From: Escherichia phage vb_EcoM_bov9_1
Sequence record: MT884006.2
Length of the DNA stretch: 64,000 nt
Direction: 5' to 3' (one strand)
Shown: positions 2,459-64,000 of the stretch, piece after piece
How the letters are laid out: the number at the start of each line of letters is the position of its first letter
Position numbering within the stretch: the first letter of the stretch is position 1
Made by a program: the position numbers and the translations under genes
Notes under the pieces: generated by a model
Seen by the model: only the letters and a program-made list of their open reading frames with translations
Told to the model about the DNA's origin: nothing
Databases searched by the model: none

Positions 2459-4278
2459 TACTGGCTCATCCATTCTTTACGAAGGTCAGCATTATCCCCC
2501 ATGAGCATTTCAAAAAGCTCTTTCCAGTTCTCAGGAAGTTTAACAACATCATATACTGGGTTTTGAATCATCTCACGATATTCAGATTTTTCCAAAGAGC
2601 CAAGTCCCTTAATATAACGGATGCTATGTTTAGGTAGAGCATCTTTGGCACTCTCATATTCAGCGACTGTATAAAACCATTCTTGTTTTTTACCGACCTG
2701 AGCGATGATTACAGGAGTTTTGACAAAACGAATTCGTCCTTGCTCAAACAATTCTGGCCAATTACTAAAAAATCCGAGCAGAGAAGGATAAATGCTTCCT
2801 AAACCATCATGGTCAGCATCGGTCATAATAGCAATATTATGATAATTCAAGTTTTCAGCTTTTTCACCAAGAACTAATCCAGTGATTGCGCAAATATCAA
2901 ATAGTTCTTTGTTTTTAAGCATATCAGCATATGACATACCCCAACTGTTGAGAACTTTACCACGCAATGGATAACCACCATGAAGTTCTTTATCACGAAC
3001 ATCAATAAGATATCCGATAGCAGAATCACCCTCGGTTAAGAACAATGTAGTATCAGCATCTTTACCACAAAGATTCGCTTTAATATGTTTATGAACCTTA
3101 GCTTTAGAAGCCTTTTTAGCTGCTTTAGTTTCTGCTGCTTTTTCTGCTGCCAATTTACGAGCCAAGGCAGCTTCAATAATCGGCATTAGAATTGCTTCAT
3201 TATTTAGAATAGCACGTGAAATCTTTTTAGCATCAAGCTGAATATGACTACGGATTTCACCAAATGGAGAAGTCAAACGCTCTTTAGTTTGAGAATCAAA
3301 TCGCATGTTTTTCATATCACGAACAAACATAACGATAGTCAAACATTCTTTAACGCGTGCTTTAGTTACATCAATTTTGAACTTACGTTTGATTTGTGGA
3401 ATAAGGTCTTCACAAATATCATCCATAACACAGTCAATGTGATGGCCACCATTCTTAGTATGAATGTTATTGACGTATGTTAATTGACGAAAACCATCCG
3501 GTGAACGACCAACCGCAATAGAACAATTTTCTTGTTCTTGAACGATAGCATGCTCATCATATTGGCGTGCATATTTCTTAAAATTGCCCTGAACCTTTTT
3601 ACCATTAAAGGTAAATTGAATATCAGGATAAACTACTGCAAGTGTCTGGAGACGATCTAGTGTAATGTCAAGATAAACTTGGGACAGCTCATTAGTTTCA
3701 AATGACATAAAATCAGGAATGAAAGTAACACGAGTTCCTTTCCATTTTCCAGGAATATCTTCCCATGATTTATTTTCCATGCCGTTTGAACAACGAACTA
3801 CAATATTATTTTGACCATCACCAGTTTCACCGACAAACATCACAGAAAAAATGTTTGTCAAACTAGAACCAACACCATTCATACCGCCAGTGACGCGTTC
3901 TTTATCATCACCAAAGTTACCACCTGCTTTTGGAATAGTCCATGCAGCAACAGGACCAGGAATTTCTTCACCGGTAGGTGTTTTAACCATTGCCTGCGGA
4001 ATACCACGACCGTTATCTTCAACTGTTACTTGATTGTTTTTAATAGTAACATTAATTTTATTTGCGAATTTAAACTTAGTACGAATACCTTCATCTACTG
4101 AGTTATCGATAATTTCATCAATAAGCTTAACAAGACCAGGTACATACTGAACACTTTCCCATTTACCAAACAGAAAGCGCTCATGCATTTCATTAGCTGA
4201 AGAGCCAATGTACATGCCGCTACGCTTTTTGATGTGTTCAATATCACTCAGAATTTTAATTTCATTCTTAATCATCAC
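2458..4278 (-). CDS. 39: DNA topoisomerase II large (ATPase) subunit, unsplit gp39 (contains the region that is separate gene 60 in T4)
   Basis: 606-aa ORF; GyrB/ParE-like GHKL ATPase motifs (IIDNSVDE, EDNGRGIP, GGMNGVGSS) followed by TOPRIM-like region (LFLTEGDSA); contiguous reading frame. Confidence 0.9.
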   Translation of the reverse strand: MMIKNEIKILSDIEHIKKRSGMYIGSSANEMHERFLFGKWESVQYVPGLVKLIDEIIDNSVDEGIRTKFKFANKINVTIKNNQVTVEDNGRGIPQAMVKTPTGEEIPGPVAAWTIPKAGGNFGDDKERVTGGMNGVGSSLTNIFSVMFVGETGDGQNNIVVRCSNGMENKSWEDIPGKWKGTRVTFIPDFMSFETNELSQVYLDITLDRLQTLAVVYPDIQFTFNGKKVQGNFKKYARQYDEHAIVQEQENCSIAVGRSPDGFRQLTYVNNIHTKNGGHHIDCVMDDICEDLIPQIKRKFKIDVTKARVKECLTIVMFVRDMKNMRFDSQTKERLTSPFGEIRSHIQLDAKKISRAILNNEAILMPIIEAALARKLAAEKAAETKAAKKASKAKVHKHIKANLCGKDADTTLFLTEGDSAIGYLIDVRDKELHGGYPLRGKVLNSWGMSYADMLKNKELFDICAITGLVLGEKAENLNYHNIAIMTDADHDGLGSIYPSLLGFFSNWPELFEQGRIRFVKTPVIIAQVGKKQEWFYTVAEYESAKDALPKHSIRYIKGLGSLEKSEYREMIQNPVYDVVKLPENWKELFEMLMGDNADLRKEWMSQ

Positions 4279-17442: not shown

Positions 17443-17610
17443 TTTTACTCTTCTTTTTCTTTAGATTCCTCTTTTTTCTTTTTAGGAATCTGTTCAGGAC
17501 CTTTATTTACTACAGCACCTGACGTTGTTCCAGTAGAGATATTTTCAGGATTACCACCTGAATCTCCAGCAACCATATCTTCTTTAATAAATTCTTTATA
17601 TGTTTTCATA

Positions 17611-22501: not shown

Positions 22502-23350
22502 TTAATCAACTGCTATCGGATGAATAGCATTAAACTTATGAAATGCTTCTGATTTTTCTTTACGAGAAACACACATGCGAAGAACCTTTAATGGCTCGTC
22601 TTCTTCACCCAACGATTTTCGTTTTTCAATATTAGAAGTTTTCCAACGAGCTTGCTCTGGAAACTCTCTATTGATTTGCTCAAGCGCTCTATTATGTTTA
22701 GAATTACTACGAATTGAACTGCACCCGCCAGGAGCTTGTGCTTTTCCAGATACAACCAGATATTTGAACAAGGCCAAATGCGGATAACCTTGATTAATTA
22801 AATTGAGAAATGCATACATATCTTCACATAAATCAATTTTTCCATACCCAATTTGTTCTGTCGTAAGTTTTCCGAGGTCATACCATGTATTCGTGAATCC
22901 ATATGAATTTTCACGATAATTACCCCAAGATGAAGTAATTTTAAAAATAGGTAGACGAGCATGGCCATGATAATACCCACAATCCATGGCATCCTCAACA
23001 TATTGAATCAATTCATAGAACTGTTCACGAGTCAATTGATTGACTTTATCCACACAACGACGATCATCTCTTTTTCGCATTGAACTCATACGAATAGTAG
23101 TATCATCGTCAATCATCCAGATTCGTTGACCTGCATACATGTCAGTAATTGCTTTACGAGTACCGGCAATTCCGTTTACATCATCAGGAATAGTTATAAT
23201 TTTAGCTCTAGACCCATAGGCATCATAATAAGCTTTTTCTTCGTGTTCACGCACTACAATATGTGGTTCATAATCAGTCGGAAACATATCAAGGGCAGAA
23301 ACTGCCCCTACACGTTGATAGCTTGGAATTACGAATTGAATCATTTCCAC
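22502..23350 (-). CDS. putative glycosyltransferase with DxD motif at the beta-gt locus (not T4 beta-gt)
   Basis: 282-aa ORF between uvsX and 42; WMIDDDTTIR motif suggests a GT-A-type sugar transferase; no resemblance to my recollection of T4 beta-glucosyltransferase. Confidence 0.5.
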   Translation of the reverse strand: MEMIQFVIPSYQRVGAVSALDMFPTDYEPHIVVREHEEKAYYDAYGSRAKIITIPDDVNGIAGTRKAITDMYAGQRIWMIDDDTTIRMSSMRKRDDRRCVDKVNQLTREQFYELIQYVEDAMDCGYYHGHARLPIFKITSSWGNYRENSYGFTNTWYDLGKLTTEQIGYGKIDLCEDMYAFLNLINQGYPHLALFKYLVVSGKAQAPGGCSSIRSNSKHNRALEQINREFPEQARWKTSNIEKRKSLGEEDEPLKVLRMCVSRKEKSEAFHKFNAIHPIAVD

Positions 23351-24081
23351 TCACCGTTATAATCTTTTTTCACAATATGAGTTTCGCCAGTATTCCACCA
23401 ATGATCAACCAAGTAAAAATGACGAGAATATACATGAAGACTTCCAACATTCCATATAATAGAACCTGCTTTATACTGACGAGTTGAATCGCCTGCATTC
23501 AAATCAGATACTAATTTATCTAATACGTATTTTTGCCATGCATAATCATTACGGAATCCGAAGACCACGTCATTTGAGCGCATGCTTACTACTGCATTGA
23601 CTTTCTTATCACGAATCAGGTACTGTACTGTATTAGTACACATGAAATCTGACATACCATCTTTATTGTAGTCAAATTGCATGGATGGACGAGTATAAAT
23701 CATGATACCACGTCGAGAATCAGGATTTTGACCAAGTTCAGCTAAACACATATCATACTGAGCATAGTTATCTTCTGACCAGATAGCCCAACCGTAATTC
23801 GAGTTAATTTCACCTTTAGAAGATGCTACTTGTTGCCAAATCTTCGGTGTTTCACCCGGAATATCTTTAACGAACAAGCTCTTAGATTTATACCATTCAA
23901 GTTCACGCTGAATGTATTCATCATTAAGAGCGCCAAAAATAAACGGTTCATCTGCTACAAATGATGCGCCAATAATTTCAATAGTTTTAACACCAGTTTT
24001 ATCAACTACGAAATCTTTTTCTTTTAATGCAAGCCCCAAATGAAGACGGATTTCTTCAACTGTCATAGAGTCACTAATCAT
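23341..24081 (-). CDS. 42: dCMP hydroxymethylase gp42
   Basis: 246-aa ORF; thymidylate-synthase-like fold motifs; size equals T4 gp42. Confidence 0.9.
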   Translation of the reverse strand: MISDSMTVEEIRLHLGLALKEKDFVVDKTGVKTIEIIGASFVADEPFIFGALNDEYIQRELEWYKSKSLFVKDIPGETPKIWQQVASSKGEINSNYGWAIWSEDNYAQYDMCLAELGQNPDSRRGIMIYTRPSMQFDYNKDGMSDFMCTNTVQYLIRDKKVNAVVSMRSNDVVFGFRNDYAWQKYVLDKLVSDLNAGDSTRQYKAGSIIWNVGSLHVYSRHFYLVDHWWNTGETHIVKKDYNGEWK

Positions 24082-35542: not shown

Positions 35543-35561
35543 AAAGGGCCGAAGCCCTTTA
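35543..35561 (-). terminator. hairpin with UUCG loop at the a-gt stop
   Basis: aaagggc-cgaa-gcccttt. Confidence 0.5.
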
Positions 35562-36761
35562 TTTTGTAATAATGTCAAACTGTTCTTTAAAGCAGAAGCT
35601 TGAATCTTGATGCTGATACAAAAATTCATACGCTTTTTCTCGCTCACGGTCATAAAGAGCTCGGTCAGATGACAGTTCTTTAATACGTTCAAACGTTGAT
35701 TCCATATCATTTTCATCAAACCAAACGATACCGCTATCATGCGAGGTCAAAGGAGTATTATCAACACGGAATTTTAAATTTTCGCCAGTAGATTTCCAGA
35801 AAACAGGAATTGTTCCACATGCACCAAGCTCGAGATGAGTATATTCTAAAGAACGTTGTAGATATTTTTTATCCAACTTACTCAACTGATAACCAAAACC
35901 GGATTTACTCATACGTTCAAGCATTTCGCTATTTACATAACGGTCAAGAATTTGCGTTGGCAAATTAGGAGCAATTTTAATTTGGTCTACTTGATGAAGA
36001 CGATAATACTCGTATGGAATTCCTTTTTCTTTAATAGGAATGAACGCTGGAGAACGTTCCAGACCTTCCATAATAGTACTTAGTCCTGCAGGTTTAAGAT
36101 GTTTTTCATGAAAATCAAACATCTGATAAAAACCTTTCCATGTAGTCGTACGACCAATCCAACGGTTGATATTCATGTTAATTTCAGAAACATCTTTCCA
36201 GTAGGTTGACCGAACCTTCGCAATATCCATAGGAGGCTGAAAGTTATATACCGTCGGTGCTTCTTCAATATCATCAAACAGAGAAACAGTTTCTGGATAC
36301 CACTCTTTCATCAGAACTTTATTAAAATCACCATTATCAGAATGGCTAAAAATAACATCAGCTCGACGAACAGTTTCTTCTAATCCCAAATTTCGACGCA
36401 AAGAAAGAGAAGAATGGTCATGTTGATAAACTACAACACGAACAGAAGGTTTAATGTTATCAATAATTTTTTTATAGTTATTAATAGTGTCTTCTTCAAC
36501 TGAAGTAGCAGGAACTGAATTGATAATTAGAATATCACAATCATTTACCAGCTTAAGTGTTTTATCGTATTCTTTTGCCAATAAAACCGGAATTGAAAAT
36601 GATTTATAATCATGTGCACAGTTACGTGTAAATGATTTATCTTTAGCATAAACCAAAGTTACTTCATGACCATTTTTAATAAACCAATCACGTTGCTCAA
36701 GAGAAAATTTAGTTACACCACAACCTTCAAGACCTCGAGCCATAAAAATACATACTTTCAT
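35559..36761 (-). CDS. a-gt: DNA alpha-glucosyltransferase
   Basis: 400-aa ORF; N-terminus CIFMARGLEGCGVTKFSLEQRDWFIKNGHEVTLVYAKDKSF recognisable as T4 AGT; size identical. Confidence 0.9.
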   Translation of the reverse strand: MKVCIFMARGLEGCGVTKFSLEQRDWFIKNGHEVTLVYAKDKSFTRNCAHDYKSFSIPVLLAKEYDKTLKLVNDCDILIINSVPATSVEEDTINNYKKIIDNIKPSVRVVVYQHDHSSLSLRRNLGLEETVRRADVIFSHSDNGDFNKVLMKEWYPETVSLFDDIEEAPTVYNFQPPMDIAKVRSTYWKDVSEINMNINRWIGRTTTWKGFYQMFDFHEKHLKPAGLSTIMEGLERSPAFIPIKEKGIPYEYYRLHQVDQIKIAPNLPTQILDRYVNSEMLERMSKSGFGYQLSKLDKKYLQRSLEYTHLELGACGTIPVFWKSTGENLKFRVDNTPLTSHDSGIVWFDENDMESTFERIKELSSDRALYDREREKAYEFLYQHQDSSFCFKEQFDIITK

Positions 36762-61671: not shown

Positions 61672-61998
61672 TCAATTAGAAAATAAATTTATCCAAGATT
61701 GTTCTTTAATTAAAAATGGCTCAGAATCATATGCCATTAAACTTTGGGTGATTAGTCCTTTAAAAGGTCCATCAATAAATTCCATGGTAAAATATGGAAT
61801 TTTATTCATTAACTGTGCGTTAGGAGCAGTGCACAAAACTCTGCATCCTTTGAATACACCTTTTTGTAATTTGTATTGCTTGGGATAAAATTCGCTTAAA
61901 ATGTTGTTATTTGCCAAAATTTCAAAATGATTTACCAATTTATTTTTAATAGTTTTTGGCGAAAAATAGAGATATTCGAAAAGCTGTGTGTCTGTCAT
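61672..61998 (-). CDS. hypothetical protein
   Basis: track ORF 61672..62052; start set at MTDTQ where it overlaps the upstream stop (TAATG). Confidence 0.4.
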
Positions 61999-62537
61999 TA
62001 TTGCATTCCGATTACGAAAAACTGTGGACGAGTAATACCACCAATGCAACATTTACTATTACAGCAGTAGTGTACAGTGTCAATATGGACGCTATAAATC
62101 TTATCCATATCAGGAGATTTGACAGGCTCATCAATTATATACAAAATTCGCGAAAGCGATAAACCTCTGAACTTGCTTCCTTTATTACCAATAAAACTGC
62201 GTACAGAATCAGTAAATAAACGAAAACGTATATCATCATTAGAATAACGCGAAAATTCCTTTTTAATGTTATTTGCAGAAATTTTAGCGTAAGCTGAAGT
62301 ATTAGAAAGAACAATAACTGTTCCGCCATCATACAGCCAATTAGCAGCAAAGTTAGTCACAGCAATTGATTTACCAGATTGACGTCCACCATCTATACGA
62401 AGTGTGCAGTACTGTTTAAGTAATTCTTCAAATGGCGGGATATATTCGTTTTTACAAATTTCTTCTACTCTAGCATCAGAATGGTGTGTAAAAGCATTCA
62501 TCAGGGATAGATACGGGCCAGTTAAAAATGTTCTCAT
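61998..62537 (-). CDS. putative P-loop NTPase
   Basis: track ORF 61998..62594; start set at MRTFLTG (AAGAGAG SD upstream); Walker-A-like DGGRQSGKS. Confidence 0.45.
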   Translation of the reverse strand: MRTFLTGPYLSLMNAFTHHSDARVEEICKNEYIPPFEELLKQYCTLRIDGGRQSGKSIAVTNFAANWLYDGGTVIVLSNTSAYAKISANNIKKEFSRYSNDDIRFRLFTDSVRSFIGNKGSKFRGLSLSRILYIIDEPVKSPDMDKIYSVHIDTVHYCCNSKCCIGGITRPQFFVIGMQ

Positions 62538-62672
62538 ATTTTCTCTCTTAATTTTTGGGCCATTCCATGGCACATGAGTTGTCCATTCCTGCATTACCCA
62601 TTACCGCGCTTTGGCTCGACCTTATCACAGGTTGGCGGGAATACCTCAAATGAGGTCCAGGCTGTTCCCATA

Positions 62673-63146
62673 TTATTTGAACGATTTAACGTACTGAATA
62701 GAACCTTTACTATTTACAAAGGCAATTTTACCATTTTTATTATACATGGTAGCAGTACGTTGATAACCATAAGTTTGTTTACCAGATTGATAACCAACTA
62801 ATGCGAAATTATCTTCACCCATTTTATTCTGTTTAGCGCGAATGCGTTCATGACCATGTGCCATAAGAACCTTAGCATCACCAGTTGCAATGGATCTACG
62901 AGTTTTTTCATCTTCAACTGTATTAACAAAGTCGTCAAATGAATCAAATTTAGCATGAGATTTATTATACAGTTTTCCATCTACTGCATAATTATATCCC
63001 TGTACATCCATCTCAACTTCTGTACCATCATCCAATACAGCAGTGATTTTTTGACCTTTTTTAAATTTCAAAAGATCAGTAAAAGATTCAGCAATAATTT
63101 GAGAATTAATAGCTGCTTCAGTGATAAATTCTTGATATGTTTTCAT
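62673..63146 (-). CDS. internal-protein-like protein with capsid targeting sequence
   Basis: 157-aa ORF beginning MKTYQEFITEA, matching the N-terminal capsid targeting sequence of T4 internal proteins as I recall it. Confidence 0.55.
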   Translation of the reverse strand: MKTYQEFITEAAINSQIIAESFTDLLKFKKGQKITAVLDDGTEVEMDVQGYNYAVDGKLYNKSHAKFDSFDDFVNTVEDEKTRRSIATGDAKVLMAHGHERIRAKQNKMGEDNFALVGYQSGKQTYGYQRTATMYNKNGKIAFVNSKGSIQYVKSFK

Positions 63147-63155
63147 ATGTTTCCT

Positions 63156-63572
63156 TTAAATGTAAATATTTTTACCGTAATACTTATACCAATGTGGTTT
63201 CATTAAAATTTTTTCATCAAGTCGTTGTTGACTCAATTTAATAGCTGATTTGCATGGATTATAATCATTTTTCCATTCTACTGGAATATCGCTGATGTCA
63301 GGAACTTCAGTATCTTTTATACTGAACCCTCGTTTTAAGCATTCCGTTATAATGTCCGATTGACGCTTTCGCAAAAATTCTAACTTATCGTAAAAGAACG
63401 TAACATGACCAGAACCTAAAATAAACTCGGAAGATATTTTAAAATCTTTAACGCGCTTACCGTTTGCCACATGCTTACGAACTATACCAAAAACACGTGG
63501 CAATTCACGGTATTCTGCGATTAAATGTTGATCAGCAAGTTCAGATACTAAAGTCAAATTAATACGAGTCAT
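63156..63572 (-). CDS. denV: endonuclease V (pyrimidine dimer DNA glycosylase/AP lyase)
   Basis: 138-aa ORF; sequence recognisably T4 DenV. Confidence 0.93.

Positions 63573-63631: not shown

Positions 63632-64000
<369 letters not shown>

Follow-up and report, generated by a model that had tools for sequence, protein, structure and literature searches.

The window analysed here is a stretch of 64,000 nucleotides from Escherichia phage vb_EcoM_bov9_1 (MT884006.2). Positions past 64000 and whole-genome data refer to record MT884007.2 (Escherichia phage vb_EcoM_bov10K1, Tequatrovirus), which is 100% identical to the window at the same coordinates. Near the end of the window, the minus strand carries the 3′ part of the lysozyme gene e, known from the annotation (63632..64000; full gene 63632..64126). 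It is followed in the direction of transcription by denV, the gene of endonuclease V (63156..63572, minus strand; Pfam PF03013 Pyr_excise, 2e-13; PHROG 1183, 2.6e-62). Directly downstream of denV, across a spacer of 9 nt, we found the gene under study at 62673..63146 on the minus strand, stop codon included, which has an ATG start, codes for 157 aa and has the N-terminus MKTYQEFITEAAINSQ in the ORF listing. The next gene, at 61998..62594 on the minus strand (annotated start 62537), is a vs.8-like gene (PHROG 1488, E=5.6e-79), with vs.7, vs.6 and further vs. genes following downstream. The start of this vs.8-like gene is ambiguous, as the ATG at 62594 gives a protein of 198 aa and the annotated start at 62537 one of 179 aa, T4 vs.8 being 219 aa long. 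By eye, the spacer between the two genes (62538..62672) looks more G+C-rich than its surroundings.

The 157-aa protein is matched along its entire length by Pfam DUF7412 (residues 1-157, E=5.7e-96, 319 bits, the cutoff being 27) and also by PHROG 3155, ‘internal virion protein’ (E=6e-102, 339 bits). In a tblastn search of phage records it is 100% identical to ipIV of T2 and to Ip4 of RB32, with identical or near-identical copies found in T2 (ipIV), RB32 and RB51 (Ip4), Yersinia phage PST (ipIV) and wV7, and its BFVD match is ‘Ip4 [Enterobacteria phage K3]’ (UniProt Q38388, 99% identity). On the strength of these matches the ORF is Ip4 (ipIV), a known small basic internal head protein of the T-even phages and an ordinary one for T2-like coliphages. 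Compared with the Ip4/ipIV of K3, T2, RB32, RB51, wV7 and PST, it has the same length, the same capsid targeting sequence (CTS) and the same position between e and vs.8, and its neighbours alone differ.

A sequence-only reading had previously assigned an internal-protein-like ORF starting MKTYQEFITEA to exactly 62673..63146, and both the position and the start agree with the ORF listing, which places the ORF on the minus strand. Its proposal of an internal-protein (IP) gene is likewise supported, by the identity to annotated ipIV/Ip4 ‘internal virion protein’ genes and by the retained CTS residues. It had also found the remaining ~147 aa unrecognisable, which the full-length match to DUF7412 and PHROG 3155 contradicts, and the comparison with known IP families that it had suggested leads to the Ip4 family (DUF7412, PHROG 3155, K3 Q38388). 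The novelty that it implied does not hold, as the gene is already named Ip4/ipIV and the polymorphism of the IP locus is classical (PMC2839356, PMC12373910). Both the gene and its variable position are thus already known, and what is new is only the correction of the label in the phage's own GenBank record, where the gene is called ‘hypothetical protein’ (QOC57112.1).

Ip4 is widespread. With tblastn we found it in at least 470 phage records, 290 of them at 99% identity or more, while homologues with 61-72% identity are present in Klebsiella (Jiaodavirus), Salmonella (Gelderlandvirus) and Serratia phages. Overall, identity ranges from 61 to 100% across Tequatrovirus, Jiaodavirus, Gelderlandvirus and one Serratia phage. 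Searching 1.84 billion representative proteins with a profile added only three distant relatives, all metagenomic, with 34-37% identity, in which the N-terminal signal is one residue shorter and reads MNFxxFLNE/S (the slash marks the cleavage point here and below).

The surroundings of ip4 vary among these phages. In the direction of transcription, the gene order is e-ipIII-ipII-denV-vs.8 in T4; e-ipIV-vs.8 remnant, without denV, in T2; e-denV-ipX (105 aa)-ip4-vs.8 in teqsoen, slur04 and many relatives; and e-denV-ip4-vs.8 in the bovine phage studied here. On its right-hand side the IP locus has a conserved border, the vs.8-like gene, which is syntenic with vs.8/vs.7 of T4, T2 and teqsoen. The layout confirms what had been read from the sequence alone, namely that the ORF lies downstream of denV with denV and e adjacent, that T4 carries ipII and ipIII between denV and e (as the T4 record shows), and that the IP complement and position differ from those of T4, a difference which represents the known polymorphism of the IP locus. 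Ip4 occupies the e-to-vs.8 IP locus in three genera, and in KP182 and STML-198 its gene stands directly after e and ahead of another IP gene, indicating that Ip4 is a widespread occupant of the locus. In T2 (NC_054931.1, 62096..63001) there is no denV between e and vs.7, and an unannotated gap of ~340 nt follows ipIV, where vs.8 is truncated. T2 is classically UV-sensitive relative to T4, which fits the absence of denV.

Comparison with teqsoen, base by base, locates the point at which the two arrangements diverge. In teqsoen, a block comprising the ribosome binding site (RBS) and the start of the CTS-coding sequence stands before both ipX (105 aa) and ip4. The sequence upstream of ip4 in our phage is that found upstream of teqsoen ipX, and from codon 9 on it is that of teqsoen ip4. 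The switch point falls within the block common to both cassettes, TTAAAGGAA(A/T)CATATGAAAACATATCAAGAATTTAT, which consists of the RBS and CTS codons 1-8. In our phage this shared block (TTAAAGGAAACATATGAAAACATATCAAGAATTTAT, 63124..63159, minus strand) overlaps the stop codon of denV and is the site of the cassette crossover. The RBS and first eight CTS codons form a ~36-nt repeat ahead of successive IP genes in relatives, with copies at 3725..3760 and 4059..4094 in one of them (L002). Because the switch lies within the shared block, the 334-bp difference from teqsoen and slur04 reflects the exact insertion or removal of a single IP cassette through homologous exchange between the repeated sequences, and the crossover in the RBS and CTS-coding block makes a tidy example of how such cassettes come and go. 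Two variable IP loci with many IP variants have reportedly been on record since Repoila et al. 1994, and their polymorphism has long been described (PMC2839356, PMC12373910).

We then considered the N-terminus. The capsid targeting sequence MKTYQEFITE (codons 1-10, 63117..63146, minus strand) is identical at 9 of 10 positions to the MKTYQEFIAE of T4 IPII and IPIII, whose N-terminus in the T4 record is MKTYQEFIAEA; the sole CTS difference is A9T, which gives ITE/A. In T4 IPIII, the first 10 residues are enough for capsid targeting, including the packaging of foreign proteins (PMC9026906), and residues 4 and 7 are given as determinants of targeting and residues 8 and 10 of processing (Mullaney & Black 1996, as cited in PMC9026906). 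Ip4 retains all of these, Y4 and F7 for targeting and I8 and E10 for processing, so that the match to the T4 CTS noted earlier from the sequence is borne out. In the window the back-translated MKTYQEF pattern occurs twice, where shuffled sequences predict 0.10 sites, and the second occurrence is gene 61.1. The CTS and Glu10 motif are kept even in the relatives with 34-37% identity (MNFxxFLNE/S), which indicates that the signal co-varies with the family and is not decaying. The similarity of Ip4 to T4 IPIII in BLASTP is restricted to residues 1-13.

Two candidate sites for the prohead protease follow from the sequence. The first, I-T-E/A at residues 8-11 (63114..63125, minus strand), has a Glu10 that is invariant in the family, and the same ITE/A tetrapeptide occurs in T4 IPI at residues 17-20, where it closes a 19-residue stretch within the propeptide range. 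IP propeptides are 10-19 residues long, and the T4 IPs are basic (PMC9026906). The second candidate, I-A-E/S at residues 18-21 (63084..63095, minus strand), is conserved in 14 family members, with Glu20 invariant, position 18 always I, L or M and position 21 S or A; IAE/S is also the CTS cleavage motif of the 105-aa IP of teqsoen. Because this second motif is conserved and residues 10-20 form a low-confidence linker in the AlphaFold2 (AF2) model, the mature N-terminus is ambiguous: it could be Ala11 (AAINSQ...) or Ser21 (SFTDLL...). The processed product AAINSQ... proposed earlier thus agrees with the ITE/A site, which is present, and is one of two options, IAE/S being able to give SFTDLL. The predicted mature protein has 137-147 aa, a mass of 15.5-16.5 kDa and a pI of 9.1-9.3. 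The genome encodes both the gp21 prohead protease (PF03420 Peptidase_S77, 6e-112) and the gp22 scaffold (PF25623 T4_CASP, 3.6e-90), jointly located at 100700-102178 of the record.

The AF2 model of Ip4 (mean pLDDT 78.8, pTM 0.73) consists of an N-terminal CTS helix, a low-confidence or disordered linker (residues 10-20) that holds both cleavage motifs, and a folded body of the alpha/beta type with beta-hairpins and a helical insert. Foldseek gave no significant structural relative in the PDB (best E 0.16) and returned only Ip4 itself in BFVD. A family-profile search of PDB sequences yielded chance matches only (E of at least 0.5), and NCBIfam gave nothing but noise below threshold, such as a curli synthesis inhibitor with 17 bits where the cutoff is 300. 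Together with the Pfam and conservation analyses, these searches detected no enzymatic motif or domain in Ip4. The residues invariant throughout the family are G31, V48, G50, K58, N61-K62-S63, A65, L94, N107-K108, A115, Q120, G122, G127-Y128, T131 and K157; as they contain neither His nor an acidic catalytic set, a binding protein is favoured over an enzyme. An enzyme reading based on His64, His97 and His99, which are conserved in the enterobacterial set, was rejected, since none of the three is conserved in the relatives with 34-37% identity.

With regard to expression, the exact late-promoter motif TATAAATA is present as a tandem pair just upstream of e (64140-64160 of the record), an arrangement which is the same in T4. 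No exact TATAAATA dedicated to ip4 was found before the gene, only variants with one mismatch that we do not trust, and no terminator-like site was found on the minus strand between e and ip4. The spacer of 78-135 nt that follows ip4 likewise contains no terminator-like site on that strand, and its predicted fold is no more stable than that of shuffled sequences (z-score -0.57). With respect to promoters, ip4 is placed just as ipII and ipIII are in T4. Taken together, we infer that ip4 is most likely expressed late by read-through from the tandem e promoters. Across the 64-kb window the TATAAATA octamer occurs only twice (15477 and 57297, minus strand), whereas the expectation from shuffled sequences is 10.9, a scarcity that fits an avoidance of spurious late promoters in the early-gene region.

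Next we examined the complement of internal proteins in the whole genome of 166,364 bp, using a scan for the CTS with a loosened pattern and T4 IPI, IPII and IPIII as positive controls. The scan returned a single canonical IP of the MKTYQEF type, Ip4, and two other CTS-like ORFs. One of these is the 54-aa homologue of T4 gene 61.1 (17445..17609, minus strand), which adjoins the primase gene 61, starts MKTYKEFIKE and is found in 1396 phage records; it keeps Y4, F7, I8 and E10, followed by Asp, not a small residue, and it ends in an acidic Lys/Glu tail. The other codes for 97 aa starting MKSYTQFLNEA (68172..68465 of record MT884007.2, minus strand; phrog_2280, function not assigned) and lies between the e.x genes and the tRNA cluster. 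It has no Pfam match, carries a signal of the FLNE/A type as in Klebsiella Ip4, and may, judging from this signal, be a further internal protein. Between the tRNA genes and 57B (70347..72254 of the record), where the ipI locus classically lies, none of the four ORFs has a CTS, indicating that the phage is without any IP at this locus.

These observations lead us to propose the following scheme. Ip4 would be synthesised late, when transcription from the late promoter pair before e reads through to its gene, and by way of its N-terminal 10-residue CTS it would attach to the prohead's gp22 scaffolding core. A prohead serine protease of the gp21 type would then cut after Glu10 (ITE/A) and possibly again after Glu20 (IAE/S), and the released basic protein of 15.5-16.5 kDa would stay in the head with the DNA and be ejected into the cell at infection. 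Once in the cell, Ip4 would bind and block a single host defence that acts early; by analogy this would be a type IV restriction enzyme that attacks DNA containing glucosyl-hmC. We consider it somewhat better than an even bet that Ip4 is such a late-made, CTS-packaged, protease-processed and injected blocker of an early defence, probably of a type IV restriction enzyme.

The analogy comes from the internal proteins of T4 and their relatives. In T4, Ip1, Ip2 and Ip3 are each inhibitory to a single GmrSD variant; those who reported this expect the same of other proteins in the two Ip loci (PMC12373910). IPIII is required on ECOR17 (PMC9391042), and Bas37_0260, a CTS protein, inhibits McrBC (bioRxiv 10.1101/2025.11.20.689424). 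The window contains the genes of an alpha-glucosyltransferase (35559-36761, minus strand) and of a second glucosyltransferase (22502-23344, minus strand), both by annotation only. The second glucosyltransferase (22502..23344) has 280 aa and adjoins a 246-aa ‘hypothetical’ gene (23341..24081) that we regard as gene 42, judging by its length and location. In both these respects the 280-aa enzyme itself fits a beta-alpha-glucosyltransferase of the T2/T6 type rather than T4 beta-gt, and if so, glucosylation of hmC would be T2/T6-like, with a bearing on which type IV enzymes attack the phage.

Ip4 shares with T4 IPII and IPIII the locus downstream of e, a near-identical 10-residue CTS with I-x-E/A, small size, basic character and, presumably, the route of packaging and injection. 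IPII and IPIII inhibit GmrSD-ECOR21/BrxU and the GmrS1/GmrSD2 doublet of ECOR17, respectively, and past residue 13 Ip4 bears no likeness to either. T4 IPI/IPI*, the inhibitor of the GmrSD of E. coli CT596, is likewise CTS-targeted, protease-processed and injected, and contains the ITE/A of Ip4 residues 8-11, but is encoded at the tRNA-57B locus and differs in its 19-residue propeptide and unrelated mature sequence. Bas37_0260 of the BASEL phage Bas37, known to us by its description, has the same N-terminal signal in a non-homologous cassette at the ipI locus; its inhibition of McrBC indicates that the targets of internal proteins extend past GmrSD to other type IV enzymes. In sequence and BFVD comparisons the mature region of Ip4 has no sequence or fold similarity to Ip1, Ip2 or Ip3, the similarity ending at residue 13. 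The known inhibitors Ip1-3 are, however, unrelated to each other (PMC12373910), so that sequence or fold similarity does not define the inhibitor class.

For GmrSD itself, the data on Ip4 point the other way. Both GmrSD-ECOR17 and GmrSD-ECOR21 restrict T2, a phage with an identical ipIV in its reference record (PMC12373910). As T2 is restricted by the targets of both IPII and IPIII, Ip4 is not a functional replacement for these two proteins. In addition, ‘ip4-10’ showed no reproducible inhibition of five further active GmrSD variants (PMC12373910, Supplementary Fig. 9), where the ‘ip4’ construct may differ from the present sequence. With these results, the data on an anti-GmrSD role of Ip4 are so far negative only, over eight variants, and the unusual conservation of Ip4 (61-100% identity) also speaks against a role in an arms race. 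A plausible reading, to which we give slightly less than an even chance, is that Ip4 is an injected inhibitor of a first-line defence outside the eight GmrSD variants tested, either another type IV class or a different system.

The same negative results suit a target other than type IV restriction altogether. Ip4 could be injected to act on another first-line defence, for instance a nuclease or an abortive-infection sensor, or in host take-over, comparable to the ADP-ribosyltransferase Alt; the eight negative GmrSD variants (PMC12373910) are consistent with this, as is conservation across Escherichia, Klebsiella, Salmonella and Serratia, which suits a conserved host target, and injected Alt illustrates that head proteins can have take-over functions (PMC9026906). 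We nevertheless consider it unlikely, given that Ip4 has no detectable enzymatic motif or domain and that every characterised CTS-bearing IP of these loci inhibits type IV restriction (PMC12373910, bioRxiv 10.1101/2025.11.20.689424). It is likewise doubtful that the main role of Ip4 lies in the virion itself, where, as an abundant basic protein of the core, it would aid assembly of the prohead core or neutralise or organise the packaged DNA, with no specific host target.

In a last alternative, Ip4 is not packaged: the CTS-like N-terminus might be a relic of cassette recombination, with Ip4 acting only inside the infected cell. A literature search on Ip4/ipIV proteomics or function, whose reach ended short of the original description of Ip4, came back empty, with no virion proteomics or N-terminal sequencing and hence no direct virion evidence, which would agree with an unpackaged protein, and so would the position of ip4 in an early-gene block where no canonical late promoter directly precedes it; T4 ipII and ipIII, however, share this promoter situation. 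Gene 61.1 likewise starts MKTYKEFIKE and is called only hypothetical protein in the records listed. Against this, the CTS and Glu10 motif are conserved throughout the family, including the metagenomic relatives with 34-37% identity, which argues for selection on the signal, and ten residues of IPIII suffice to package foreign proteins (PMC9026906). We therefore regard an unpackaged Ip4 as highly improbable, and keep to the packaged and injected protein as the preferred reading.

As a finding, the presence of ip4 downstream of denV matters little, being the rediscovery of a named gene present in at least 470 sequenced phages. Its interest lies in the target. Ip1-3 of T4 have each been tied to GmrSD enzymes, and few IPs are as widespread or as well conserved as Ip4. 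A phage with Ip4 as its apparently only canonical IP offers a clean and convenient background for finding that target. Should Ip4 indeed be an injected inhibitor of a first-line defence outside the GmrSD variants tested so far, its conservation across the T4-like phages of Escherichia, Klebsiella, Salmonella and Serratia would reflect a widespread and conserved target in the Enterobacteriaceae.
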